Positions 171-29,678 of a stretch of 32,000 nt of DNA are shown here, piece after piece. How positions within the stretch are numbered: the stretch's first letter is position 1; the number at the start of each line of letters is the position of its first letter. The position numbers were made by a program, and so were the translations under genes. The DNA comes from Candidatus Electronema halotolerans (lineage in GTDB: Bacteria; Desulfobacterota; Desulfobulbia; Desulfobulbales; Desulfobulbaceae). The stretch is taken from assembly GCA_942493095.1 (NCBI GenBank), contig OW818675.1, forward strand, positions 990,001 through 1,022,000. The letters run 5' to 3'. The notes under the pieces were generated by a model that was given only the letters and a program-made list of their open reading frames with translations, was not told the DNA's origin and searched no databases.

Positions 171-293
171 ATGAAAGATCGCACCAAAAAGACAGACCGC
201 AAGACCGTTGCAGCGCAGAAGAACGAGAATAAAAACCGAAAGGGCCTTCGTACCGGTGTGAAAGCAGGAAAAATTGGCTGGCAGCCCGTTTAA
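171..293 (+). CDS. small basic peptide, paralog 1 of 3 (40 aa); candidate RiPP-type precursor with conserved N-terminal 33 aa and unique tail KIGWQPV
   Basis: In-frame ATG at 171 inside track ORF 72..293 (which starts at TTG), with AGGGAG about 7 nt upstream. MKDRTKKTDRKTVAAQKNENKNRKGLRTGVKAG matches the copies at 1863 and 4587. Stop TAA is at 291-293. Confidence 0.55.
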   Translation: MKDRTKKTDRKTVAAQKNENKNRKGLRTGVKAGKIGWQPV

Positions 294-295: not shown

Positions 296-1781
296 GTAAG
301 CGATCACAGGGTACCGCTCAGACCCAGCTTAAATCCGGCATCTGTCCTCTGAAATAGCAGCGCATGGCCTCGGTGAGCACCTCGAAAGTGGATTTTCCCC
401 GAAGCAGGCATGTCTGCCGGAGGGAAAGGATTCGTTCAACCCAGCGGTTTCCCTTGTCGCTGTCAGTGCCCTGACTCCGTTTGCGCCACAGCACGCCGAA
501 GCGGAGCATCCGTTCCGCTGGATTATTTGTCGGCTCTACGCCTTCTTCGAGCAAGAAAGTGAACAACGCCTCCATTTCCTTGTCAATATGACGGACAAAC
601 CTCCCCGCATCACTGTCGCAATCGCGCCAGCGTAGGATAAGTCGGCAGAGCCGGGCATAAAATGCGGACCATTCACCTTTGGTCGGCGGGTCTTTCGCCA
701 TGCGGCAGAGCCGCCGCAGTTCCGCAGCGGCCCATTTGCCGCAGGCGGCCAGTTCAGGGTCAGCGCGCTCCGCAAGGCCGTCTGCCCGGCGGATAAGATG
801 CGCGAGGCAAGTCTGCCGCTTGCCGACCCATTTTTGGTACACGTTGTATCCGTCGCTGATGAGAATACCGTTCCAAGCACCGATCAGTTCTTCAAAGGCT
901 TCCTTAGAGCGTTTCGGATGAATCATGAAGAACGCGGCCTGCCGGTTCGCCATAACCCATAACCAGCGCAGCCTGCCGCCAGTTTTCCACGTTGTTTCAT
1001 CAACATGTCCGATATCCCCGCTTGTGACGGCAGCCCGGACGGCCTCATAGTGCGGCGCGACAGCCGCCGAAGCCCGGTCAATGATCTTCTGCACCGCCCC
1101 GGCGCTGATAGGAACGCCGAGCACGGAACGGATGAATTTCCGCACAGTTCCCCGGCTGCTGCCGTCCATGCCGCTCAGTTCGGCAACCAGCGCGGTGAAC
1201 CGCGCCCCGAAACCGGTTCTGAATTCATCGGGAACACAGCCTCTGACGGTTTTGCCGCAGGCGGCGCATTCCCCTTTATAAAGAAGGAAATGCCTGACCT
1301 GCATCACGATTTCCGGCAGTTCAATATGCTGATGCGTATAATATGACCGTATGTTTTTGAATTTGCCGCAACCGCAGGAGCAGGCGGAAGGATACATTTT
1401 TTGCGTTTCTGTCGGCGGCATCAGCTCCTGACGATATCCACGCCGCTTTTTCCGGGGCTTCCCCGCCTGATCTCTCTGCCGTTTTTCTGTAAACGGAGAG
1501 TCGGAAGAAGGCGGCCTGTTCGAGTTCGAGGAATCTTCGCCGAGTTTCGCCTCAAGCTCTTCGACCCGTTTTCTCAGCCGCGTTACCTCAGCGATCAAAA
1601 AAGACAGCAGCTTCCGCACCGCAGGAGGTGTAGCGGCAAGGTCTTCCTCGCTTATCTCAAAATTTTCACGATGGAACGGGGCGGTCACAGCTTTCTCCTG
1701 CGGAAAAAATTACTGCTCACAATTTATCCAGTTGCGATGCCAAGCGCCAGTGTTTTTTAGAGACACCCTGTGATCAGTTAC
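296..1781 (-). mobile_element. IS66-family insertion sequence, single-ORF (ISBst12-like) type, 1486 bp, apparently intact
   Basis: Termini are GTAAGCGATCACAGGGT (296-312) and the reverse complement of 1765-1781, GTAACTGATCACAGGGT. They match at 15/17 and begin with the GTAA(GCG) typical of IS66 IRs. The element is flanked by an 8-bp direct repeat and carries one 456-aa IS66 transposase ORF. Confidence 0.9.
318..1688 (-). CDS. IS66-family transposase (TnpC-type DDE)
   Basis: 456 aa. N-terminal coiled-coil/leucine-zipper-like helix, NSNRPPSSD motif, Cys-rich zinc-finger region (CSCGCG..CAACG), and HVDETTW / SDGYNVY / CLAHLIRR / TNNPAERMLR blocks characteristic of IS66 TnpC. Confidence 0.95.
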   Translation of the reverse strand: MTAPFHRENFEISEEDLAATPPAVRKLLSFLIAEVTRLRKRVEELEAKLGEDSSNSNRPPSSDSPFTEKRQRDQAGKPRKKRRGYRQELMPPTETQKMYPSACSCGCGKFKNIRSYYTHQHIELPEIVMQVRHFLLYKGECAACGKTVRGCVPDEFRTGFGARFTALVAELSGMDGSSRGTVRKFIRSVLGVPISAGAVQKIIDRASAAVAPHYEAVRAAVTSGDIGHVDETTWKTGGRLRWLWVMANRQAAFFMIHPKRSKEAFEELIGAWNGILISDGYNVYQKWVGKRQTCLAHLIRRADGLAERADPELAACGKWAAAELRRLCRMAKDPPTKGEWSAFYARLCRLILRWRDCDSDAGRFVRHIDKEMEALFTFLLEEGVEPTNNPAERMLRFGVLWRKRSQGTDSDKGNRWVERILSLRQTCLLRGKSTFEVLTEAMRCYFRGQMPDLSWV

Positions 1782-1862: not shown

Positions 1863-2012
1863 ATGAAACGCAACACCAGCAGAAAGACAGACCGCAAGAC
1901 CGTTGCAGCTCAGAAAAACAACAAAAATCGAAAAGGACTTACGACTGGGGTAAAAGCAGGTCGTTGGCCCCTCTTTATTCCTGTTTCCTTCGCTGGCCCT
2001 GGCGGCAACTGA
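1863..2012 (+). CDS. small basic peptide, paralog 2 of 3 (49 aa); tail RWPLFIPVSFAGPGGN
   Basis: ATG at 1863 within track ORF 1809..2012, with AAGGA 6 nt upstream. MKRNTSRKTDRKTVAAQKNNKNRKGLTTGVKAG is shared with the other two copies. Confidence 0.55.
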   Translation: MKRNTSRKTDRKTVAAQKNNKNRKGLTTGVKAGRWPLFIPVSFAGPGGN

Positions 2013-2078: not shown

Positions 2079-4307
2079 TCACCTAACCACCACCACCCCG
2101 TAATCCAAAGCCTCCTCCAGATGCTTGCGGATGTCGGCCTGCTTCAGGCCCAAGTCCTCAAGGATCGTACCCAACGAAATTCTGCCGTCCATTCGCCGCA
2201 ACACCGCAATCCAGTCCCCAACCTCATCCTCAGCTAAATCATACTCCAGTACCCCGTTGATCAGAATATGCCAGAGGGGCGTTTCCACGCCCGCCTGCTC
2301 CCCAGTGGTCAGCAGGAGCACATCCTCGGCCAGTTCCGGGATGCTTTCAGGGGTGATTTCCTGCCGCCGCAGGGCCAGCCGCAGGGCGATCTCCTCTTCA
2401 TCCCATTCCTCGGCCCGCAGCGAGGGCAGAATCGGGGCTTCATAGAGCGCAACCGGTTCGGCAGCAGCGGTTGCGGCCATCTGCGCCAGCAGGCCCATAT
2501 TGGTCAGCTTGACGAGATGATCCATATCCGCATATTCCGGGTCATCAGGAATGCTGTTGATCATCTCTTCCACGGTCTGCCGGTCAAAGACCGGATGCGA
2601 GCCGTCCGCATCACCGAAGGCTTCGCGCAGCAGGGCGCGGTCATCGGCATAGAGCAGTTCATACATCATCCGCTGGGTATAGCGCAGATCCTGGCCGTAG
2701 AAAAACGGCACCTTTGGCCGTTCAGCCAGCTCTTTTGGCAGATGCGGTCGCATGGCCTCGCGGAGGATGCGCTTATTCCAGAACAGTTCCGCATAATATT
2801 TGGGCGGAACCGCCGCAGTGTACTCCACGAGACGGTGATCAAGAAAGGGCACTCGATTTTCAATGCTGTTGCCCGCCGCAGTCCGGTCTTCGTGCCAGAG
2901 GTTGAACATCTGGAGGCTGGCCTGATACATGCGGATATGGTACTGCCAAGGATGCGGCTGGAGAGTTGCTCCGCCGCAGTCGGCGAGAAAGCCGCTGTTG
3001 AGCAGATTGGCATAGTCCGCTGTATTTTTCGGGCCGACAGAGAGGAGATAGGTCTTTTCAAAATCCCGCAGCAGTTCCATAAACAGGGGCCAGTTCCGTT
3101 CTTCCTCCGGGCGTTCAGGGTAGCCCTCAGCAAGATAATTCGGGCCGTAGCCGCCGTTGAACTCATCGCTGCCTTGACCGAGAAGCATAACCTTGAGTCC
3201 GGGACAAACAGCGCGGGCATAGCGATGCAGATGAAACTTGTACAGCTTTTCCGCATCACAGAGAGGGGTTTCAGTAATCCAGAGCAGAGATTTCCAGCCC
3301 TCCGGGGTGAAGGGGCTGTCGTGCCAGGAAAAGAGCACCTGATGATTGGGCAGGCCGAGATGGGTTGCAGCCTGATGAGCGGCAGAGGCATCTCCGTTTT
3401 CAAAGGTGCTCTGGCCGAGTACGGAAAAGGTATGCAGGGACTGATGCCGGGATGCGAAGGCGGCCACGGAGACTGAATCAATGCCGCCGCTGAGAAACAG
3501 GCCGATATCCACATCAGCCATCAGGCGGAGCCGCACCGAGTCTTCAAGTAGCTCGCCGTAGCCTTGAATGATTTCTTCTGCGGAACGGTCGTCTGCGGCG
3601 AATTCTTCTTCTGAAGGAATATCAAGCGTCCACCAGCGTTTCTGACGGATTTCTCCGGTGTCCGGTTTGGCGATAAGCAGTGAGCCGCCGGGCAGGTAAT
3701 GAATGTCTTTAAAGAAAGACGGCAGGGGATTGTCTATGCTCTGCTGCATCAGGTTGAAGCTCAGAGCGGTTTCCCAGTCAAACTCACGCGGGCAGTCGGG
3801 ACAGGCGAGCAGAGATTTGATCTCCGAGCCGAAAAGCAGACGTTCCTTGTTGAAGCTGTAAAAGAGCGGCTTGATGCCCATGCGGTCACGGGCTAAGAGC
3901 AGCTTCCGGCTGCGCATGTCCCAGAGGCACAGGGCGAACATGCCGTTGAGTTGCTTGAGAAAATCTGCGCCCTGTTCCTCGTAAAGATGGAGAATGACCT
4001 CCGCATCCGAGGCGGTGCGGAACTGGTGCGGTTCTTTGAGTTGCGCTCTGAGTTCCCGGTGATTGTAGATCTCGCCGTTGACCATGAGCATCAGGGAGCG
4101 GTCTTCATTGAACAGGGGCTGCCTGCCGCCTTCTACATCCACGATGGACAAACGGCGGAACACCGTGCCCAAGATATCATCCTGATAGAGCTGCTCATCA
4201 TCCGGGCCTCGGTAGGCGATGGACTGACCCATTGCCCTGAGTACCGGTTCAGTTTCAGGGCCAAGAGGCAGACGGTTTGTTTTCAGTATTCCGGCGAATC
4301 CGCACAT
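2079..4307 (-). CDS. asparagine synthetase (glutamine-hydrolysing) family amidotransferase with a ~110-aa C-terminal PqqD/RRE-like extension
   Basis: 742 aa. Class-II glutaminase residues are intact: MCGFAG (Cys2), RRLSIVD, NGEIYN, SDAEVI. PP-loop LSGGIDS is present. GGAG lies 11 nt upstream of the ATG. The C-terminal tail ...WIAVLRRMDGRISLGTILEDLGLKQADIRKHLEEALDYGVVVV is absent from canonical AsnB. Confidence 0.93.
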   Translation of the reverse strand: MCGFAGILKTNRLPLGPETEPVLRAMGQSIAYRGPDDEQLYQDDILGTVFRRLSIVDVEGGRQPLFNEDRSLMLMVNGEIYNHRELRAQLKEPHQFRTASDAEVILHLYEEQGADFLKQLNGMFALCLWDMRSRKLLLARDRMGIKPLFYSFNKERLLFGSEIKSLLACPDCPREFDWETALSFNLMQQSIDNPLPSFFKDIHYLPGGSLLIAKPDTGEIRQKRWWTLDIPSEEEFAADDRSAEEIIQGYGELLEDSVRLRLMADVDIGLFLSGGIDSVSVAAFASRHQSLHTFSVLGQSTFENGDASAAHQAATHLGLPNHQVLFSWHDSPFTPEGWKSLLWITETPLCDAEKLYKFHLHRYARAVCPGLKVMLLGQGSDEFNGGYGPNYLAEGYPERPEEERNWPLFMELLRDFEKTYLLSVGPKNTADYANLLNSGFLADCGGATLQPHPWQYHIRMYQASLQMFNLWHEDRTAAGNSIENRVPFLDHRLVEYTAAVPPKYYAELFWNKRILREAMRPHLPKELAERPKVPFFYGQDLRYTQRMMYELLYADDRALLREAFGDADGSHPVFDRQTVEEMINSIPDDPEYADMDHLVKLTNMGLLAQMAATAAAEPVALYEAPILPSLRAEEWDEEEIALRLALRRQEITPESIPELAEDVLLLTTGEQAGVETPLWHILINGVLEYDLAEDEVGDWIAVLRRMDGRISLGTILEDLGLKQADIRKHLEEALDYGVVVVR

Positions 4308-4455
4308 AATACATTTTCTCCTTCAATATCAGGCACCGAAAAGGGGACACGATATAAACCAAACCAACGCGATCAGAATAGGTGAAGACTGTCGTGATGT
4401 CAAGCAGGAAGAGACAGCTTATTGATATTGCCAAGATATTTTTTTAAAATACAGC

Positions 4456-4586: not shown

Positions 4587-4712
4587 ATGAAACGCAACAC
4601 CAGCAAAAAAACAGACCGCAAGACCGTTGCAGCGCAGAAGAATGAAAGCAAAAGCCGGAAGGGTTTTCGTACCGGTGTGAAGGCGGGAAGATTAATCATA
4701 GATCATTATTAA
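4587..4712 (+). CDS. small basic peptide, paralog 3 of 3 (41 aa); tail RLIIDHY
   Basis: ATG at 4587 within track ORF 4422..4712, with GGAGG 6 nt upstream. MKRNTSKKTDRKTVAAQKNESKSRKGFRTGVKAG. It has its own promoter (4456-4486) and terminator (4774-4805). Confidence 0.65.
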   Translation: MKRNTSKKTDRKTVAAQKNESKSRKGFRTGVKAGRLIIDHY

Positions 4713-4773
4713 TCAATCATTTATAATCGATCGGGGACAGACCCCACATTTAGCCCGACAGCGTAAAGCTCCG

Positions 4774-4805
4774 CAGGGTGCCTTCAGCGCACCCTGTTTG
4801 TTTTT
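4774..4805 (+). terminator. rho-independent terminator after peptide gene 3
   Basis: CAGGGTGC-cttcagc-GCACCCTG followed by TTTGTTTTT. Confidence 0.75.
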
Positions 4806-4835: not shown

Positions 4836-4994
4836 CTAACTTTTTGATTTTTCACCTTTAAATGGATTAATAAAAGCCACGCCGGTACGTTCAATATCGG
4901 CCACGTTGCGCGTCACCAGGGTTAAACCGTGAACTGAGGCTGTGGCCGCCAACAGGCTGTCAATCACCGGCAGCGGATCTGGTACGCCCAACCA
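4836..4994 (-). pseudogene. vapC: vapC (PIN-domain toxin) 3' remnant, C-terminal ~50 codons only
   Basis: Manual translation of the minus strand gives [52 protein letters not shown]. It is bounded upstream by an in-frame TGA. The ID..IAAtA..HgltLvTrNv.dF....nPf pattern is the canonical VapC C-terminus. It overlaps the kinase stop codon in another frame. Confidence 0.6.
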
Positions 4995-7620
4995 TCACCA
5001 CCTTTTTCGCTTCACTCAGCCTGTTTTCATGCACTGTGGCCAGCACCCGCTGAAAAGCGGCCTTGGCAAAGGGCTTTTCAAGAAAATCGTTCATGCCCGC
5101 CTCGGTGCAGCGTTGCCGGTCTTCGACCGCCACATTAGCGGTGATGGCGACAATCCACGGCTGCTGCTCAGGGGCGATTTCGGCCCGGATGCGTCGGGTC
5201 GCCTCCAGACCGTCCATGACTGGCATGTTGACATCCATGAAGACCACGTCATAAGGCGTTTCCTGCACCTTTTGCAGGGCATCCGCGCCATTGTCAACAA
5301 AATCAACGGTCAGGTCGAACTTTTTCAAAAAGGTGCGAATCAGCATCTGATTGCCCCGGTTGTCGTCTGCCGCTAAAACGCGGAGCGCAGTTTTTTCCGG
5401 CGGCGCAATGACTGCTGTCGTCTGCTCTGCCGCCTGACAGGGCAGGGCCACTGACCTGCATGTTCCTTCGCAGCTTAGTGCTTGGAACAGTGCCTTTATG
5501 GTCAGGGGTTTGTTGATCAGCAGCGGCTCTGTTCCAGCAGGCAGCAACCATTCACATTCAGTCAGATGCACAGGATACGCCAGCAGAATGGGCGGAGAGG
5601 GCAGGGTGCTGACAAGCTGCTTGAGCCGCTCCCGCCCGCTGCTGTCAAGCTGCTCCAAGGCGGCATCGTCAACAAGGAGGAGATCGGGCGGCTGAGAAAT
5701 ATCTGCTCCGTTAAACTGACTGGCCGGGACAGACTGCACATGCAGGCCAAGGAAGTGCAAGGGCTTGCTTACAGCCTGTTCCAAGGTCGGATTATGGATC
5801 AGCAGGAGGATGCGCTGGCCGGAGAAGACTGGAGCAGGCAGGTCAATGCAGCTTGCGGGCTGCTCGTCGGCAATCCGCAGGGGCACGGTGAAGGAGAAGC
5901 AGGAGCCTTGACCAAGCTCGCTTTCCACCGTGATGCTGCCACCCATCAGCTCGGTCAGCTGGGCGCAGATGCTCAGGCCAAGGCCGGTGCCGCCGTACTT
6001 GCGGCTGGTCGAGGACTCGGCCTGGCTGAAGGAGCGGAACAGCTTCTTGATGTTTTCCTCGGCAATGCCGATGCCGGTGTCACGGACGCTCCACGTCAGC
6101 ATGGTTCCGCTGTCATCAGCGCGAACTGAAACCTCCACCTCGCCTTTTTCTGTGAACTTCAGGCTGTTGCCCACCAGATTAAGCAGAATCTGCTCAATCC
6201 GGGCCGAGTCGCCGATGATCCGGCAGGGGAGCTGAGGATCAATGTCGGCAATCAGCTCAATGCCCTTGGCCCCGGCCTTGGGACTCATCAGAGTCAGCAC
6301 CTTTTCGACACTGCTGTGGAGGAGAAAAGGCCGTTCTTCCAGCTCCATCTTGCCGGCCTCGATCTTGCTGAAGTCAAGAATGTCGTTGACCAAGCGGATC
6401 AGGCTGTTGCCGCTGGCATGAATGACTGAGGCAAAGTTGTGCTGCTCCTTGCTCATCTTGGTGTCTAAGAGAATCTCAGCCATGCCGATGATGCCGTTCA
6501 TGGGCGTGCGGATTTCATGGCTCATGAAAGCAAGGAACTGCGCCTTGGCATGCGCCGCCTCTTCCGCCGCCTCTTTGGCTTCGCACCAGGCATTTTCAGC
6601 CCGGATAATGAAACGGGAGAAAAACCAGGAAAAGAGCACGGAGATGGCCACGCTGAGGACAAGGGAAATGCCGATATTGATTAAAAAATCATGCTGGGAC
6701 TCCCGCGCCAGGGCGTAGGCGGAATCGCGGCGGTCAACCAGCACAGCGGCGAAATCAATTGATTCCGCCACGTCATAGCTGCCGACATAGCTTGCTCCGG
6801 CATAATCAAAGCGTTCCAGCTTTGAGACTCTGGCTAACGTGGTGTGGCTCAGGCTGGCGGCAATGTCGTCAATCAACGGATAAGGCAGCTTGTCACCCAG
6901 CTTGAACGGTGCCTTGCGGTTGGCATAGAGCACTGTCCCTTGGGCATCGGCAATATAAATCTCCGCAAACTGGTTTTCGATTCCCAGCCCGGCCTCTTCG
7001 CCGATTCGTTGCAGGGCCTCAGAGAGCTGGAACACGCAGCGCACCTGCACCTTCTGCCCAGACGGCTCGATGATGAACAGATCAACAGGCAGAAAGAATT
7101 CAGTGCGTTCCTCGGAGCGGATGAAAATCGGAGCGCAGGTTTTGGTTGCGCCCTGCTGGCGGATTTGGCAGTTTGCAGTCAGCATCCTGCCGACTCCTTC
7201 CGCATCAGCGGCGGAGAGCCGGGCCATTTCCTCCTCTTTGAATAGAGAAAGCGGCGGCCCGCCGTTCTGTACCATCATCACGAGAATATCCTTAGACTGG
7301 CGGACAAAAACATCCAAAAGCCGGTTGCGTTCAGCAGAATCAGCATTGCTGCTGACAATGTCGGCAATTCGGGCAAGGCTCGCCTGCCACGTCAGGGTGT
7401 TGAGCTGATCAATCTGAAGGGTGATCTGCTTGGCAGTCAGGAGAAATTGATTGTTGAGCGAGCTGGTGAGCTGGTTCTCGACATTGCGCAGCAGCTTCCA
7501 CGCGACAATGCTGTAGGGGAGGATGCCAATCAGCAGAAAGGACAGCAGAAAGGTGTTGAAGAGGAGTTTTTTATTGAAACGGGTCAGACGATGCATGGAA
7601 CACGACTCTGGCAGCGGCAT
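4960..7620 (-). CDS. hybrid sensor histidine kinase / response regulator
   Basis: 886 aa. Two TM segments flank a ~270-aa periplasmic region. HisKA H-box [15 protein letters not shown] and HATPase G-boxes GTGLGLSIC are present. C-terminal receiver is LRVLAADDN...[13 protein letters not shown]...EKPF. An alternative start at Met9 is possible. Confidence 0.93.
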
Positions 7621-9932
7621 CAGTCCCCGGAGTCGGCGGCAGAATTGCCGAGCATGTCCTGCACCCGGATTTCCCGCAGCGTCACTTTTCCGGCCACGCC
7701 GGGGAGGATGAAAATGCTGCCGACAAAAGTATCAGGCGTTTCGCCCGTGTGTTTGAGCAGGCCCTTGAAGGGCTGGCCATTGACCTCGGCGACAAAAGAG
7801 CCGCTCTTGGCCGCGCCAACGCCGGCATCCTTAATCCGGGCGGCCAGCCGCACCATTTCGCCGCCTTTGGTTTCCGGCGGCGAGAATTTTGCACTGAGGA
7901 TTTCGGGCGGCTGTGAGTCGCGCAGGATGCTGGTTTTCCAGAAGCCCCGGTTGCCTGCCCGGTCTTCAGCTATCAGCATCAGCTTGTTGTCGCCTTCTGC
8001 CAAGGCAACAGCTTCCTTGAAGCTCTTGCCGGTCAGCTTGACCGCCTTGCCATTCAGGGTCAGCAAGGCCTGTTCAGAAACCGTGCCGCTCAGGGTGATC
8101 TGTCCGGCTGAGGTCACGCGCTCAAGCTCATTGACCTGAATTTTCGGTGGCTGCGGGTCAACAAGCACGTGCAGACGCAGGGTTTCCTGCGCTCCATTCG
8201 GCCCGGCAGCCTCCAGCTCCACCGCATGTTCTCCTTCGTTGAGATGGAGCAGATGCGTGAACCTGCCTGCGGCCTGCACTGCTGTTTTGTTGATTTGCAG
8301 GCGCACACCGGGCAGGAGCTGGCCGGAAATTGTCACCTCTTCCGTCCTGCTGATAATTCGCTCAGGATTGTCAAGCCAGATGAGCTGCTTGTCCTGCCGC
8401 AGGGTCACGGTGCGCTCAACTGTGCTGGTGTTGCCTGCCGCATCCGCAGCTTCGGCCTTGATCACCGTGCTTGTGCCGCTGAGAGCAATGACATGCCGGA
8501 ACTGCCCGTCCGCATCTGGCTTGACTTCCTGCCCGTTAATCCGCAGCCGGGCGGTTTTTTCCACCTCGCCGCGCACTTCGATTTCCTTGTCCGCAGTCAG
8601 TATATCTTTTTCTGGCTGATGCAGCACGAGAAAAGGCGGACGGCTGTCCAGATCAACAAAGAAATTGACAGGTTCCGAACAGGGGCCGGGACAGCCTTCC
8701 TGATCAATGGTTTTGATCTTGAAAAAATAGGCACCGCTGGCCGGGACCTGCCATTGCCAGCTCTGGCCGCTGACCCTGTCAGACGAGAGCAATGCAAGGA
8801 AGTCCGAGCTGCGGCTGATTTCAAGCTGATACTGACTGGCTCTGGCAACTGGTTCCCATTTGAACAGCAGCTGCGCCTCATGCAGCTTCTGCTCCGACTG
8901 CGGACTGATGATCTTCGGCGGAGGCAGGAGTTCGTGCGGCGTGTCAGGTTGCTGACCAGGTTTGACCTTGGTGGCCTGATTCTTTTTCACCGTCACCTGC
9001 GCCCCAGCGGCTTTGATGTCGATTTCGCCGTCATAGTTGGCAATCCGGGTGACGTTTTTCTTGTCGCGGGAGGTGAGAAAACTTCGTGAGCGGACATTCG
9101 TGGTGATGTCAGGCAGATTCACTTTGAACTGCTTCTGCTGATTCAGCGAGGCCAGATGGACAAGAACATCGCCCTTAAACATGGAAACGCTGTTGCTGTA
9201 GGAACTGCGGAGCACATTTTTTTCCATGCTGCCGATCACCACCAGCGCATGTTCATCTAAAGAAAGCTGGCTCTGGTCGCTGAATTTGATCGTGCAGCGG
9301 GATGCAGCCAAGGTGCGGACCCGCTCCAGTTCTTTCAGCTTCTGCTCCATCTCCGTGTCCAGCCAGCGGGAAGCATCTGGCGGTCGGTTCTGCACTGTGC
9401 CGGATTTGGCAGCCAGCCAGGCCTCAGCAGACTGAGTCTGGCTCTGTTTCGCTTTTTCAAAAGCTGCCTGCGCCGCTGTCTCGGCCAAGGCAGCCTGTTT
9501 CACGGCTTCTTTCAGACGAGCTTCTTGCTTGAGGCGCAGGGCCTGATCGCGCAGGCGGACTGCCGCAGCGATTTCCTGCTCTGCCAGCAAGGCTGCGCCT
9601 TCCCGGTTGGCTTCACTGATCAGGAAGGCGGAATGTTCAAGATGCTGGCGCAGCTTGCTGTGCAGAGCCACAGGAAATCGCAGCACCGTGCCTGCGCCAA
9701 CTGCATCAGGATTTTTCAGTCGGTTATAGCGCAGGACAAGCTGCCACGCATCGCCGTCGCCGAGTTGCTGCTCGCTGACCTGCCGCAGGGACTCCCCGGC
9801 CTTGAGTGTAATCTGCACATCGCCATCAGCAGAGGATGCAGCTCCGTTTGGTCGAGAGATGCAGCAACTCAGCAAGATAACCAGAAATATGCTTATGTTT
9901 TTCCCTGACATAGATTTGTTTTTCTCCAGCAC
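7620..9932 (-). CDS. secreted LysM / FecR-like / FN3 / Ig-like repeat protein
   Basis: 770 aa. Signal-like N-terminus ([12 protein letters not shown]) and a LysM-like segment ([39 protein letters not shown]). These are followed by a coiled coil, a FecR-like beta region, and repeated ~85-aa Ig-like modules. The stop overlaps the kinase start by 1 nt (TGATG). Confidence 0.85.
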
Positions 9933-26130: not shown

Positions 26131-27807
26131 ATGAACGACCAATTCCACAACAGCGGCCCTGGCGAGCAGAATGTTGCGCAGGGCGACCACGCCATCTGCA
26201 AGCAGGTCAATAACTACGGTGTGCCGTATGAGGCATACGGGGAGCTTGCAGGCAAGCTGACCGTCACCGAGGCCGCCCTTGCCAGCTTCTTCAAGATACT
26301 GGAGGAGCAGCAGGTTCCGCTGGGGGATTTGGACAGCAAGCTGCGGGACATAGCCGCCCAGTACAAGGAACTGCTGGTGCGGCTGGAATTTGTGCAGTCC
26401 GAAGACCAAGAAGTTCGGCGGCTGAAGGATGGGGCCAGGCAGGCGATTGAGGCGGGCAAGTACGCTGAGGCCGAGGAGCTGCTGAACCTGGCCGAGGCCC
26501 GTGATGTGCAGGCCATTGAGGAACTGGAGCAGGCCGCCCGCCAGCGGCGCATCTCCGCTGCGGAGACCAATGCTGACCAGGCCAAGCTGCAAGAACTCCA
26601 GTTGCGCTACGAGAAGGCTGCCGCTTACTGGCAGAAGGCCGCCGTCCTGCTGTCGGAGGACAAGAAGAAGGTCAAGGCGTACTATTTGAACGCGGCAGGC
26701 TATGACCTTGACCGCATTGCTGACTACACGAAGGCCCTGCCCCTGTATGAGCAGAGCTTGGTCATCAGCCAAGAGATCGGCGACAGGGCGGTCGAAGGCG
26801 CGACGCTGAACAACATCAGCCAGATTTACAAGGCGCGGGGCGACTACGCTGCGGCCCTCAAGTATCTGGAGCAGAGCTTGGTCATCCGCCAAGAGATCGG
26901 CGACAGGGCGGGCGAAGGCACGACGCTGAACAACATCGGCCAGATTTACAAGGCGCGGGGCGACTACGCTGCGGCCCTCAAGTATCTGGAGCAGAGCTTG
27001 GACATTCACCGAGAAGTCAGCAACAGGTCAGTGGAAGGCGCGACGCTGAACAACATCGGCCAGATTTACAAGGCGCGGGGCGACTACGCTGCGGCCCTCA
27101 AGTATCTGGAGCAGAGCTTGGTCATCTTCCGGGAGACTGGCGGCAAGGCGGAGGAAGGCACGCTGTTGAACAACATCGGCCAGATTTACGATGCGCGGGG
27201 CGACTTCGCTGCGGCCCTCAAGTATTATGAGCAGAGCTTGGTCATCAGCCAAGAGATTGGCGACAGGGCGGTCGAAGGCGTGATGCTGAACAACATCTCC
27301 GGGATTCACTGGGCGCGGGGCGACTTCGCTGCGGCCCTCAAGTATCTGGAGCAGAGCCTTGCCATCAGCCAAGAGATCGGGAAAAGGGCGGTCGAAGGCG
27401 CGACGCTGAACAACATCAGCCAGATTTACGATGCGCGGGGCGACTACGCTGCGGCCCTCAAGTATCTGGAGCAGAGCTTGGTCATCCGCCAAGAGATCGG
27501 CGACCGGGCGGGCGAGGGCAGGACGCTGAGTAACATTGGTGCGCTTCACCATGCTAAGGGCGACTACGCTGCGGCCCTCAAGTATCTGGAGCAGAGCTTG
27601 GCAATCATGCGCGAGATCGGAGCCAAGGCAGAGGAAGCAGTGATGAGTTGGAATATTGGCCGTGTTTACGAAGATCAGGGCGACCTTGTCAAGGCGGAGC
27701 AGCACATCAGCCGGGCGGTGCAGCTTGAAGAGGAAATCGGCCATCCTGATTTGGAGAAAGACCGCGAGGCATTGGCAGACATTCGCGCCGAGCTGCGGGG
27801 CCGGTAG
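26131..27807 (+). CDS. tetratricopeptide-repeat protein (8 x 40-aa TPR units), copy 1
   Basis: 558 aa with GGAGG 5 nt upstream. N-terminus is MNDQFHNSGPGEQNVAQGD, followed by a coiled-coil region. Then come 8 units of the type ALKYLEQSL.I.QEIGDRAGEG.TLNNIGQIYKARGDYAA. Confidence 0.9.
   Translation: MNDQFHNSGPGEQNVAQGDHAICKQVNNYGVPYEAYGELAGKLTVTEAALASFFKILEEQQVPLGDLDSKLRDIAAQYKELLVRLEFVQSEDQEVRRLKDGARQAIEAGKYAEAEELLNLAEARDVQAIEELEQAARQRRISAAETNADQAKLQELQLRYEKAAAYWQKAAVLLSEDKKKVKAYYLNAAGYDLDRIADYTKALPLYEQSLVISQEIGDRAVEGATLNNISQIYKARGDYAAALKYLEQSLVIRQEIGDRAGEGTTLNNIGQIYKARGDYAAALKYLEQSLDIHREVSNRSVEGATLNNIGQIYKARGDYAAALKYLEQSLVIFRETGGKAEEGTLLNNIGQIYDARGDFAAALKYYEQSLVISQEIGDRAVEGVMLNNISGIHWARGDFAAALKYLEQSLAISQEIGKRAVEGATLNNISQIYDARGDYAAALKYLEQSLVIRQEIGDRAGEGRTLSNIGALHHAKGDYAAALKYLEQSLAIMREIGAKAEEAVMSWNIGRVYEDQGDLVKAEQHISRAVQLEEEIGHPDLEKDREALADIRAELRGR
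26734..27693 (+). repeat. 8 tandem 120-bp coding repeats inside TPR gene 1
   Basis: Period is exactly 120 bp. The 60-mer cagatttacaaggcgcggggcgactacgctgcggccctcaagtatctggagcagagcttg is identical at 26821, 26941 and 27061. Confidence 0.95.
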
Positions 27808-27966: not shown

Positions 27967-28221
27967 ATGACAATCGCAGAACGTATTTACCAGCAGAGCA
28001 GGAAACTTCCTGAAGCGCAGGCCCAGAGTGTGCGCCTGCGCCGGAACAAGGCGCGGCAGCAGGAGGCCGCCGACATGAGCGAGTTTGACCAGTTCGGCGC
28101 GGTATATGATGGAACCTTTGATCGGAATACCTGCTATGACCGGCCTGTGCAACAGCAGCATGGACAGCTTATTGACGGCAGCCTGACTATCGTCAATCCA
28201 TTTGCAGAGGACACAGCATGA
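27967..28221 (+). CDS. hypothetical 84-aa protein, possibly a decayed antitoxin/toxin mosaic
   Basis: AGGAGG lies 4 nt upstream of the ATG. The stop overlaps the TPR gene 2 start (ATGA at 28218-28221). The N-terminus MTIAERIYQQSRKLPEAQAQ resembles DUF2281-type antitoxin N-termini. The C-terminal LTIVNPF resembles a PIN toxin end. Confidence 0.5.
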   Translation: MTIAERIYQQSRKLPEAQAQSVRLRRNKARQQEAADMSEFDQFGAVYDGTFDRNTCYDRPVQQQHGQLIDGSLTIVNPFAEDTA

Positions 28222-29678
28222 ACGACCAATTCCACAACAGCGGCCCTGGCGAGCAGAATGTTGCGCAGGGCGACAGGGCTGTTGGCAAGCAGGAGAACAA
28301 CTTCTTCTACCGTCTGCTGGGCCGTATCTTCACGTCCGGCAACCAGTCCCCGGCGATTGGGGCGGGCCGCGATGTGCAGGCCATAGAGCAGCTTGAGGAC
28401 GCAGCCAAGCAGCGGCGCATCTCCGCAGCAGCTGACACCAATGTCTCCCAAGCGATTGCCCAGCGCCTCCAGTTGCGCTACGCCAAGGCTGCCGCGTACT
28501 GGCAGAAGGCCGCTGCCCTGCTGCCGGAAGACAAGAAGCAGGAACGCTCACTTTATCTGCACAACGCAGGCTATGACTTTGACCGTGTTGCCCGCTACAA
28601 GGAAGCCCTGCCCCTGTATGAGCAGAGCTTGGCAATAGACCGGGAGATCGGTGACAAGGCAGGGGAAAGCGCAATGCTGAACAACATCGGCGAGATTTAT
28701 CGGGCGCAGGGCGACTACAGCACGGCTCTGAAGTATTTTGAGCAGAGCCTTGGCATCCGCCGGGAGAATGGCGATAAGGCAGGGGAAGGCCAATCACTGA
28801 ACAACATCGGCCAGATTTACGATGCCAAGGGCGACTACAGCACTGCCCTGACCTATTTAAAGCAGAGCCTTGCCATCAGCCGGGAGATTGGCGACAAGGC
28901 AGTAGAAGGCGCAACGCTGAGTAACATCGGTGCGCTTCACCATGCGCGGTGCGACTACAGCACTGCCCTGACCTGTTTAGAGCAGAGCCTTGGCATCAGC
29001 CGGGAGATTGGCGACAAGGCAGGCGAAGGCACGATGCTGAACAACATCAGCCAGATTTACGATGCGCGGGGCGACTCCAGCACTGCCCTGACCTATTTAG
29101 AGCAGAGCCTTGCCATCAGCCGGGAGATCGGCGACAGGGCGGGCGAAGGCACGACGCTGAACAACATCAGCCAGATTTACAAGGCGCGGGGCAACTACGC
29201 TGCGGCCCTCACGTATCTGGAGCAGAGCTTGGACATCAGCCAAGAGATCGGTGACAGGGCGGTCGAAGGCGCGACGCTGAACAATATCGGCCAGATTTAC
29301 GATGCGCGGGGCGACTACGCTGCCGCCCTGAAGTATCTGGAGCAGAGCTTGGCAATCCGCCAAGAGATCGGCGACAAGGCGGGCGAAGGCGCGACGCTGA
29401 GTAATATTGGTGCGCTTCACCATGCTAAGGGTGACTACGCTGCGGCCCTCAAGTATCTGAAGCAGAGCTTGGCCATCAGCAAAGAGATCGGCGACAGGCG
29501 CGGGGAAGCAGTGATGAGTTGGAATATTGGCCGTGTTTACGAAGATCAGGGCGACCTTGTCAAGGCGGAGCAGCATATCAGCCGGGCGGTGCAGCTTATG
29601 GAGGAGATAGGCCATCCTAAATTGGAGGAATGCCGCGAGGGATTGGCAGACATTCGCGCCGAGCTACGGGGCCGGTAG
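28218..29678 (+). CDS. tetratricopeptide-repeat protein (8 x 40-aa TPR units), copy 2
   Basis: 486 aa. The first 19 codons are nearly identical to copy 1 at the nucleotide level. The N-terminal region is shorter. It has 8 TPR units and a highly similar C-terminal cap (AEQHISRAVQL.EEIGHP). Confidence 0.9.
   Translation: MNDQFHNSGPGEQNVAQGDRAVGKQENNFFYRLLGRIFTSGNQSPAIGAGRDVQAIEQLEDAAKQRRISAAADTNVSQAIAQRLQLRYAKAAAYWQKAAALLPEDKKQERSLYLHNAGYDFDRVARYKEALPLYEQSLAIDREIGDKAGESAMLNNIGEIYRAQGDYSTALKYFEQSLGIRRENGDKAGEGQSLNNIGQIYDAKGDYSTALTYLKQSLAISREIGDKAVEGATLSNIGALHHARCDYSTALTCLEQSLGISREIGDKAGEGTMLNNISQIYDARGDSSTALTYLEQSLAISREIGDRAGEGTTLNNISQIYKARGNYAAALTYLEQSLDISQEIGDRAVEGATLNNIGQIYDARGDYAAALKYLEQSLAIRQEIGDKAGEGATLSNIGALHHAKGDYAAALKYLKQSLAISKEIGDRRGEAVMSWNIGRVYEDQGDLVKAEQHISRAVQLMEEIGHPKLEECREGLADIRAELRGR
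28605..29564 (+). repeat. 8 tandem 120-bp coding repeats inside TPR gene 2
   Basis: Same 120-bp period and phase as in copy 1. The units are more diverged from each other than in copy 1. Confidence 0.9.

Follow-up and report, generated by a model that had tools for sequence, protein, structure and literature searches.

Why should an enzyme of asparagine synthetase-like (AS-like) type in a cable bacterium carry an additional domain at its C-terminus, and what are the small paralogous genes that surround it? The question is raised by a stretch of 32,000 nucleotides from Candidatus Electronema halotolerans (Desulfobulbaceae; assembly GCA_942493095.1, contig OW818675.1, positions 990,001 to 1,022,000), termed the window below, whose first letter is position 1 of all coordinates unless a different locus is named. 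The enzyme gene (2079–4307, minus strand) is a single open reading frame (ORF) for 742 amino acids (aa). Its product is identical to CAK8715201.1 from Candidatus Electronema halotolerans, which bears the public name 'Glutamine amidotransferase type-2 domain-containing protein', and its Electrothrix orthologues are named 'asparagine synthase'. Directly established are the architecture of this enzyme, the predicted fold of its tail, a fusion that is both rare and conserved, the co-location of precursor-like genes and the leader/core pattern of the peptides they encode. The best reading of these observations, which we hold with moderate confidence as regards the chemistry, is that the enzyme performs a leader-guided, glutamine-dependent C-terminal amidation of the flanking peptides. 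Enzyme and three small genes would in this case probably represent a minimal modification module for peptides that are made by the ribosome and modified after translation (RiPPs).

Enzyme core and C-terminal tail

The catalytic core has the hallmarks of both the class-II (N-terminal nucleophile, Ntn) glutamine amidotransferases and the asparagine synthetase B (AsnB) superfamily. In the N-terminal glutaminase domain (residues 1 to ~190; 3738–4307, minus strand), Cys2 directly follows Met and is accompanied by Arg52, Asn77-Gly78-Glu79 and Asp101, positions that align with Arg49, Asn74-Gly75-Glu76 and Asp98 of Escherichia coli AsnB (1CT9). Pfam GATase_7 matches residues 51–168 (E 2.7e-46), and GATase_7 and GATase_6 together span residues 35–168. 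The AsnB-type synthetase (ATP pyrophosphatase) domain (residues ~230–610; 2478–3620, minus strand) is delimited by Pfam Asn_synthase (PF00733, residues 251–588, E 2.5e-61), by the family alignment and by alignments to 1CT9 and 7YLZ. It contains a PP-loop of the SGGxDS type (SGGIDS, residues 273–278), the motif GQGSDEFNGGY and the family-specific LWHEDRTAAGNSIENRVPFLD. A sequence-only reading of this stretch had claimed an intact glutaminase site and PP-loop; every motif it quoted was recovered (MCGFAG starting at residue 1, RRLSIVD at 51, NGEIYN at 77, SDAEVI at 100 and SGGIDS at 273) and aligned to E. coli AsnB.

Among solved structures, the hydroxyamidotransferase TsnB9 (7YLZ) is the best sequence match (E 2.4e-51), slightly better than E. 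coli AsnB (1CT9, E 2.3e-49). Both match over the two catalytic domains, with all glutaminase residues and the PP-loop kept, whereas the window protein differs from both by ~130 extra C-terminal residues, an insertion between GQGSDEFNGGY and WHEDRTA, and changes at the acyl-adenylate site. In the 1CT9 alignment, Gln, Asp, Ala and Lys occupy the positions of Glu348, Thr322, Thr323 and Arg325, respectively, four residues that we take to be required for β-aspartyl-AMP chemistry in E. coli AsnB. Compared with a true AsnB, a two-domain protein of ~550 aa that keeps its aspartate-site residues, the window enzyme thus shows four substitutions and ~130 additional residues, and the replacement of these presumed aspartate-chemistry residues argues against a housekeeping role. 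A Glu-Tyr pair is kept in GSDEFNGGY (DExxxxY) at the position equivalent to the Glu363-Tyr368 dyad of the nitrile-forming enzyme PesC, to which we return below.

The extension beyond the AsnB core that the sequence-only reading had pointed out is real, although it covers ~130 aa (residues ~611–742) rather than the ~110 proposed, and comprises a ~45-residue linker and an 88-residue folded domain (the interval 2079–2405 translates to WDEEEIAL...DYGVVVVR*, i.e., residues 635–742 and the stop codon). The linker (residues 611–654, AATAAAEPVALYEAPILPSLRAEEWDEEEIALRLALRRQEITPE; 2346–2477, minus strand) is partially conserved in the family and mostly unstructured at low model confidence, with one helix in a first model. 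That first AlphaFold2 model, of the 130-residue tail with five close sequences, reached a predicted local distance difference test (pLDDT) score of 47 and was used solely for the order of secondary structure elements. The folded domain (residues 655–742; 2082–2345, minus strand), in which the motif W..vLr..DG.rsl is conserved across the family, was modelled from 75 diverse tails with a pLDDT of 94.7 and a predicted TM-score (pTM) of 0.84. Strands are predicted at domain residues 3–5, 9–13, 25–29 and 32–37, helices at 39–51, 58–65 and 73–81, and a last strand at 85–87. The model thus contains the three-stranded sheet followed by three helices, over ~85–90 residues, of a RiPP recognition element (RRE), with short extra strands at both ends. 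RREs have their strands ahead of the helices, an order that differs from that of canonical winged helix-turn-helix (HTH) domains.

Comparison with solved structures may point in the same direction. Foldseek searches of the PDB with the tail domain gave TMq values of 0.70 for the GdmN C-terminal part, 0.59 for the peptide clamp of MccB, 0.50 for McbB and 0.42 for TbiB1 with its leader, all with E-values above 0.01 because the domain is short. A TM-score of ~0.5 or more is reached by three of these, the GdmN part and the domains with which MccB and McbB bind their leaders. Sequence signals linking the tail to RREs are weak but consistent. Pfam PqqD (PF05402) does not match the window tail, on which Pfam and NCBIfam models give marginal HTH matches only; across the family, 2 of 75 tails match the PqqD model (best E 0.046) and 10 match PaaA-like_N (best E 3e-4), which also models an RRE. 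A search of the PDB with the tail profile lists PqqD 5SXY at E 0.024, with Lrp/AsnC-type HTH regulators as top matches (E 0.002–0.008), and alignment of the tail by hhalign with a Pfam-verified discrete PqqD domain from another locus (L011) gave E 0.0099, with strands and DG motif lined up in register. The PqqD/RRE-like assignment of the tail therefore stands in one of its two parts: the modelled fold is RRE-like, of the β3-α3 type, and membership in the PqqD Pfam family is not established.

The fusion of core and tail is rare. An exhaustive search of 1.84 billion representative proteins with the tail profile returned 100 clusters at E ≤ 1e-3 and 56 at E ≤ 1e-10, and all full-length matches were 705–769 aa long and of AsnB-plus-tail architecture. 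A word-indexed search with the tail found four fragments only, i.e., the family is visible only with exhaustive profile searching. When metagenomic loci were sought with an alignment of the C-terminal half of the tail, most matches were tail-less relatives: among loci with the core motifs WHEDRTA or IE-RVPFL, the tail was absent in 75 of 80 and present in 5, and the complete tail-less relatives (n = 46) were almost all 624–666 aa long. With 75 of 80 relatives devoid of the tail, the extension is not common among AsnB homologues, and its genomic context, where it occurs, is usually RiPP-like; the sequence-only reading had made its case depend on the extension not being widespread in homologues without adjacent small peptides. 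The fusion is rare and conserved, and chance lengthening of the ORF does not account for the tail.

Over its full length, the window enzyme is 59% identical to the protein at locus L009, 51–53% to those at L006, L007 and L010, and 37% to those at L011, L013 and L089. The closest loci belong to Electrothrix metagenome-assembled genomes, with two Electrothrix loci obtained from a contig scan with a single-protein query. All 28 full-length members keep the PP-loop, and five (P0012, P0018, P0040, P0066 and P0075) have lost the glutaminase Cys nucleophile together with other glutaminase motifs.

Two side observations concern the enzyme family. At loci L001 (~4790) and L002 (~1365), in a region aligned with window positions 2748–3107, the enzyme gene is disrupted by a one-base insertion that differs between the two loci; the insertions lie ~25 nucleotides apart, one of them within a C run, and may represent assembly errors or pseudogenes. 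The homologues at L015 (723 aa) and L018 (678 aa), both with WHEDRTA, exceed the usual tail-less length, and the end of the L015 protein (...DLAAVTDAVVEFLEAGWFETAEVPA) resembles another PqqD-type tail that the tail profile missed. Judging from these sequences, the RRE fusion onto this AsnB branch may have arisen in more than one event.

Precursor-like peptides beside the fusion

The three small peptides proposed by the sequence-only reading are encoded by real ORFs, each preceded by a GGAG-type ribosome-binding site. pepA (171–293, plus strand; 40 aa; GCAAIG_04590, annotated as hypothetical) encodes MKDRTKKTDRKTVAAQKNENKNRKGLRTGVKAG followed by the core KIGWQPV and is supported by its translation, a GGAG ribosome-binding site and conservation of the leader DNA. 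pepB (1863–2012, plus strand; 49 aa), convergent with the enzyme gene and supported by translation and DNA alignment, encodes MKRNTSRKTDRKTVAAQKNNKNRKGLTTGVKAG and the core RWPLFIPVSFAGPGGN; an identical peptide occurs in a JGI metagenome. pepC (4587–4712, plus strand; 41 aa; GCAAIG_04605), divergent from the enzyme gene, encodes MKRNTSKKTDRKTVAAQKNESKSRKGFRTGVKAG and the core RLIIDHY behind a GGAGGAA ribosome-binding site, and is framed by a promoter-like site (4422–4450, plus strand) and a terminator-like hairpin (4773–4797, plus strand). The three window products share a Lys/Arg-rich leader of the pattern MKRN..KK.DRKTV.AQKN.K.RKGFRTGVKAG, which ends in TGVKAG and is followed by a hypervariable core of 7–16 residues. 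At the DNA level, the leaders are near-identical with scattered third-position changes, and the copies diverge abruptly past the KAG codons (..AAAGCAGG). All three peptides contain KTDRKT, and when the core is taken as everything after KAG, RLIIDHY is the only one with Asp, as had been noted. Pfam and NCBIfam models gave no match on the peptides.

The same design recurs throughout the cable bacteria. Precursor-like genes lie beside the enzyme at every cable-bacterial locus with sufficient flank (three in the window, four at L001, two at L003 and four at L004), in the arrangement generic to RiPP precursors: paralogous small genes next to an enzyme, their products alike in the leader and hypervariable in the core. 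A search with the peptide profile yielded 39 clusters; those with an organism name are all from Electrothrix or Electronema, and the named ones are all 'hypothetical'. The 41 cable-bacterial peptides contain 37 distinct cores behind leaders that consist of 35% Lys plus Arg, and the Lys of a [VIL]K[AVT]G motif is invariant in 41 of 41. Core length is 6–7 residues in 25 of the 37, and lengths of 2, 3 and 16 occur as well. The C-terminal core residue has 13 identities (Tyr 9, Phe 6, Trp 4, others), and Asp or Glu is found in nine cores, the other 28 being without either. The Asp of KTDRKT is likewise absent in many paralogues, which read KKAIRKTV, NAARKTV, KKAVRKTV or KKAKAVRK. Since most cores lack Asp and Glu and the leader Asp is variable, the α-carboxylate is the sole carboxyl group common to all putative substrates. 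In these organisms, the module consists of enzyme and peptides only, and its neighbours differ from locus to locus.

Several candidate functions for these small genes and their sequence features were rejected. Three identical minus-strand hairpins flagged as terminator-like (GCTGCAACGGTCTTGCGGT; 214–196, 1909–1891 and 4633–4615) merely reverse-complement the leader-coding ACCGCAAGACCGTTGCAGC, which is conserved, and were dismissed as terminators; it follows that the precursor mRNAs hold a conserved small inverted repeat in their leader codons. The peptides do not qualify as transcription-attenuation leader peptides for asnB, as they are encoded on the opposite strand or convergently and are not Asn-rich, nor as type I toxins, as their hydrophobic stretch measures just 6–7 residues.

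Peptide genes also accompany distant members of the enzyme family. L007 and L008 contain five peptide genes whose products end in PG.xAK..[ILV][RKH]AGQ plus 5–15 variable residues, followed by an ATP-binding cassette (ABC) transporter gene. The L007 enzyme shares 51% identity with the window protein; four of the five peptides at this locus have Arg or His at the position of the KAG Lys. The precursor at L010 reads ...EIKAG-PARSG, two peptides at L089 read MKVK(H/Q)TNIKAG followed by a variable tail, and L005 has a possible precursor with TGLRAG. The KAG-type precursors of L007/L008, L010 and L089 are all without the KTDRKT Asp. The second group consists of YxxP-type short peptides at L011, L009 and L090. 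L011 combines a 22-mer YxxP peptide (MQKYTKPVAKKVATSSVLIVVA) with an Rce1-like protease, an M28 peptidase and a discrete PqqD protein (PF05402, 51 bits). The L011 enzyme scores 63.8 bits with the tail profile and, compared end to end including the tail, shares 37% identity with the window protein. L091 encodes an ABC exporter with a C39 peptidase near the enzyme. No convincing precursor was found beside the enzyme at L006, L013 and L091, and L005, L092 and L093 are uncertain in this respect.

Some of these distant loci have further features of their own. The ABC transporter of L007 (9909–12125 of that locus) has more than 150 N-terminal residues without a Pfam match; judging by their position, these may form a degenerate C39-like domain that handles the leader. 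At L089, the NIKAG genes (6441–6651 of that locus) lie just upstream of the gene for P0012 (6995–9112), and genes for a Rieske oxygenase, a sulfotransferase and a P-domain protein are nearby. At L090 (1–7937), the enzyme P0024 is encoded by the last gene after those for a YcaO protein, a nitroreductase, a 500-aa protein of no known family and an ABC transporter, with the candidate YxxP peptide (MRYYKPVCSAKARK...) downstream of the enzyme; the product may be an azoline- or thioamide-type RiPP that is also given a C-terminal modification.

Proposed C-terminal amidation and competing chemistries

A precedent for the architecture is FzmA from fosfazinomycin biosynthesis, a member of a sequence similarity network cluster (cluster 58) whose AS-like enzymes carry an RRE fused to the C-terminus (Cha et al., bioRxiv, September 2026, PMC13622209); this combination of domains and its general role are thus already known. 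FzmA puts hydrazine on the C-terminal Arg of FzmZ, a ribosomal peptide of 22 aa, amidates the same C-terminus when given L-Gln, and uses Gln, Glu-NHNH2 and Glu-NHOH as donors (PMC13622209). Its cluster co-occurs with 21/22-residue YxxP peptides, discrete PF05402 RREs, nucleotidyltransferases, an AurF-like enzyme and a major facilitator superfamily (MFS) transporter (PMC13622209). Like FzmA, the window protein joins a glutaminase, an AsnB-type synthetase and a C-terminal RRE-like domain and is encoded beside short precursor genes. The likeness also runs via L011, where published features of the FzmA cluster stand next to an enzyme homologous to the window protein including its tail. The window system nevertheless departs from that cluster in several ways. 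Its enzyme is only 37% identical to the L011-type enzyme, FzmA itself being compared by description; at a cluster level of roughly 40% identity or more, it could belong to cluster 58 or to a cluster of its own. Its precursors are 40–49 aa long with a Lys/Arg-rich leader that ends in TGVKAG and has no YxxP, and several paralogues with hypervariable cores take the place of a single peptide that always ends in Val-Arg. Instead of a Streptomyces, the host is a member of the Desulfobulbaceae, a cable bacterium. Among the scanned ORFs of the 32-kb window, to which all statements on missing window genes below refer, we found neither a discrete RRE nor a nucleotidyltransferase, and no genes for an AurF-like enzyme, an MFS transporter or a hydrazine pathway. 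A search for an FzmA-named protein starting from the L011 tail returned one unnamed fragment only. To our knowledge, no role had been known for any AS-like enzyme with a fused RRE before the 2026 work on FzmA.

Further AS-like enzymes act on peptide C-termini, as set out in another 2026 paper by the laboratory behind the FzmA work. TsrC from thiostrepton biosynthesis and ScdTA amidate them, and PesC from nitrilobacillin biosynthesis converts the C-terminal carboxylate into a nitrile via the amide, for which it needs its Glu363-Tyr368 dyad to act on the peptide C-terminus (PMC13060819). Nitrile formation by PesC additionally required prior β-hydroxylation and a fixed C-terminal Asn; no sequence signature is known to separate amidases from nitrile synthetases, and ~300 uncharacterised AS-like enzymes were counted in RiPP contexts (PMC13060819). 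Like the window protein, these enzymes are AS-like and have the DExxxxY Glu-Tyr dyad; they adenylate a ribosomal peptide at its C-terminal carboxylate, with ammonia drawn from glutamine. They differ in belonging to multi-enzyme clusters with a fixed C-terminal residue and no fused RRE described in PMC13060819, whereas the window module consists of enzyme plus peptides, with 13 different C-terminal residues in the peptide family.

By analogy with these systems, the C-terminal domain of the window enzyme would bind the conserved Lys/Arg-rich leader, and the tethered core would reach the synthetase site, where its C-terminal α-carboxylate would be adenylated, as homology to FzmA, TsrC, ScdTA and PesC suggests. 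Ammonia released from glutamine at Cys2 would then attack the acyl-adenylate to give a C-terminal carboxamide, a step that we propose because the glutaminase is intact and no other nitrogen-donor gene is present in the window. Speculatively, a protease or exporter encoded elsewhere might finally cut the leader after ..KAG. C-terminal amidation, which the sequence-only reading had offered as one of its two simplest hypotheses, is the best-supported chemistry, with a precedent in the amidation by FzmA with L-Gln (PMC13622209).

Several findings weigh against this picture. Simple amidation explains neither the sharp peak of core length at 6–7 residues nor the invariant KAG Lys in cable bacteria. 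One of the five glutaminase-dead enzymes, P0012, adjoins KAG-type peptide genes, from which it follows that glutamine-derived ammonia is not needed family-wide; the earlier argument from an intact glutaminase to amidation holds for the window protein and fails as a statement on the whole family. Neither a leader protease nor an exporter is encoded in the window, and the window leaders are without the YxxP motif of the FzmA-type group. As for the tail, the missing PqqD match and Foldseek E-values that all exceed 0.01 count on the same side, and the top-ranking Lrp/AsnC-type HTH regulators make a non-RRE winged helix formally possible. The enzyme also scores 380 bits with TIGR01536 (asparagine synthase, glutamine-hydrolysing) at a cutoff of 267, which is the reason for the public name 'asparagine synthase'.

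The core-length peak, the invariant KAG Lys and the glutaminase-dead relatives, one of them beside NIKAG peptides, together keep a cyclisation alternative alive, in which the adenylated C-terminus would be attacked by the KAG Lys to form a lariat of ~9–10 residues, or by a freed N-terminus in a head-to-tail reaction. Lasso cyclases and β-lactam synthetases are AS-like enzymes able to use intramolecular amines, and the prevalence of 6–7-residue cores would fit a constraint on ring size. We still regard such a cyclase as unlikely: all glutaminase residues are preserved by selection in the window enzyme as well as in 22 of 28 relatives, which is hard to explain without ammonia use, four of the five L007 peptides show Arg or His where that Lys would be, core lengths of 2, 3 and 16 occur, and the head-to-tail variant requires a leader protease, none of which accompanies the enzyme. 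Similarly unlikely, in our view, is the bolder idea that the KAG-type peptides and their enzyme constitute an undescribed RiPP family whose products are small hexa- to heptapeptide rings or lariats, lasso logic in reverse, and that these hypervariable, strain-specific products act as signals or kin-recognition cues in the multicellular filaments of cable bacteria. A lasso peptide cyclase proper was rejected. Lasso formation needs Gly, Ala, Ser or Cys at core position 1 and Asp or Glu at positions 7–9; 28 of the 37 cores contain neither acidic residue, the two NCBIfam lasso-cyclase models score far under their cutoffs (207 bits against 525, and 52 against 300), and no lasso B protease is encoded in the window. 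The likeness to McjC-type cyclases lies in the AsnB-family adenylating core and in a ribosomal peptide recognised by an RRE (PqqD-like, the B1/E protein, in lasso systems), a role that is predicted here; the differences are an intact glutaminase, the lack of a B2 protease in the window and an RRE that forms part of the enzyme, where lasso systems have theirs on or next to a protease. The sequence-only reading had argued against lasso-type cyclisation as well, and these results agree with it.

The same enzyme–peptide pairing and the same reaction site could also lead to a different product, either a nitrile formed by a second adenylation, as in PesC, or a hydrazide or hydroxamate derived from glutamyl donors, as in FzmA and TsnB9. 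PesC passes through the amide with the same AS-like machinery and without a known separating signature (PMC13060819), FzmA takes Gln as well as its hydrazide and hydroxamate counterparts (PMC13622209), and the top solved-structure match of the window enzyme is a hydroxyamidotransferase. The window, however, contains no gene for hydrazine or hydroxylamine chemistry, the module is confined to enzyme and peptides amid varying neighbours, and the β-hydroxylation and fixed Asn on which PesC depends contrast with 13 C-terminal residues here, so that products of this type are not very likely. That the protein is an ordinary cellular asparagine synthetase, with a winged helix for regulation or DNA binding and unrelated small ORFs nearby, would accord with its TIGR01536 score, with the asparagine synthase name in public records and with the HTH regulators at the top of the tail's profile matches. 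This we consider very unlikely, given how rare the fusion is, the recurrence of leader/core peptide families beside it in unrelated lineages, the presence of YcaO, a C39-ABC exporter, a discrete PqqD domain or peptidases at some loci, the changes at the presumed β-aspartyl-AMP positions in the 1CT9 alignment, and predicted strands ahead of the helices, the order of an RRE and not of a canonical winged HTH. Least credible, and in our view highly improbable, is amidation of a side chain, be it the Asp of KTDRKT in the leader or an Asp or Glu of the core. AsnB chemistry originally amidates the side chain of aspartate, and KTDRKT is found in three of three window peptides; that Asp is, however, missing from many cable-bacterial paralogues and from the distant KAG-type peptides, just 9 of 37 cores contain Asp or Glu, and the characterised peptide-acting AS-like amidases all target the C-terminus (PMC13060819, PMC13622209). 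The sequence-only interpretation is thus partly supported: it was largely right on the fold and on its leading hypothesis of C-terminal amidation, it overstated the PqqD assignment, and its alternative of Asp amidation was wrong.

In the literature searched, we did not find the KAG-type precursor family, the minimal enzyme-plus-peptides module or its occurrence in cable bacteria described, nor any paper joining 'cable bacteria' with 'ribosomally synthesized'. The locus extends the AS-like enzymes with an RRE to a second precursor family, that with KAG leaders, and to a minimal module. It also bears on annotation, as an asparagine synthase or generic amidotransferase label covers the enzyme and 'hypothetical proteins' its putative substrates, for a fusion common to ~100 clusters. 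If amidation holds true, the enzyme would use leader guidance to amidate C-termini largely regardless of sequence, across at least 13 different end residues, and would be attractive for making peptide amides. The restriction of hypervariable 6–7-residue peptides to Electrothrix and Electronema offers a lead on signalling or competition in uncultured filamentous organisms.

Surroundings of the module in the window

Between pepA and pepB lies an IS66-family transposase gene (318–1688, minus strand; Pfam DDE_Tnp_IS66, E 8e-35), which interrupts the system and is not part of it; the peptide–enzyme module seems to have been split by this insertion. Transposase fragments also adjoin the module at L001. 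Directly beside the module, a hybrid histidine kinase (HisKA, HATPase_c and receiver domains) and a 770-aa FecR/Glucodextranase_B/Ig-like protein are encoded at 4960–9932 (minus strand), abutting at 7620. Since the neighbours of the module differ at other cable-bacterial loci, a functional link with the kinase and FecR-like genes is unlikely.

Further away, two adjacent genes encode large tetratricopeptide repeat (TPR) proteins (26131–27807 and 28218–29678, plus strand; TPR_12 and TPR_10, E down to 1e-93), and a 129-aa ORF without a family match sits between them. Other genes in the window include those for RadC, an FGE-sulfatase-domain protein, a TrkA-type channel, RNase II, HslVU, IspG and aconitase.

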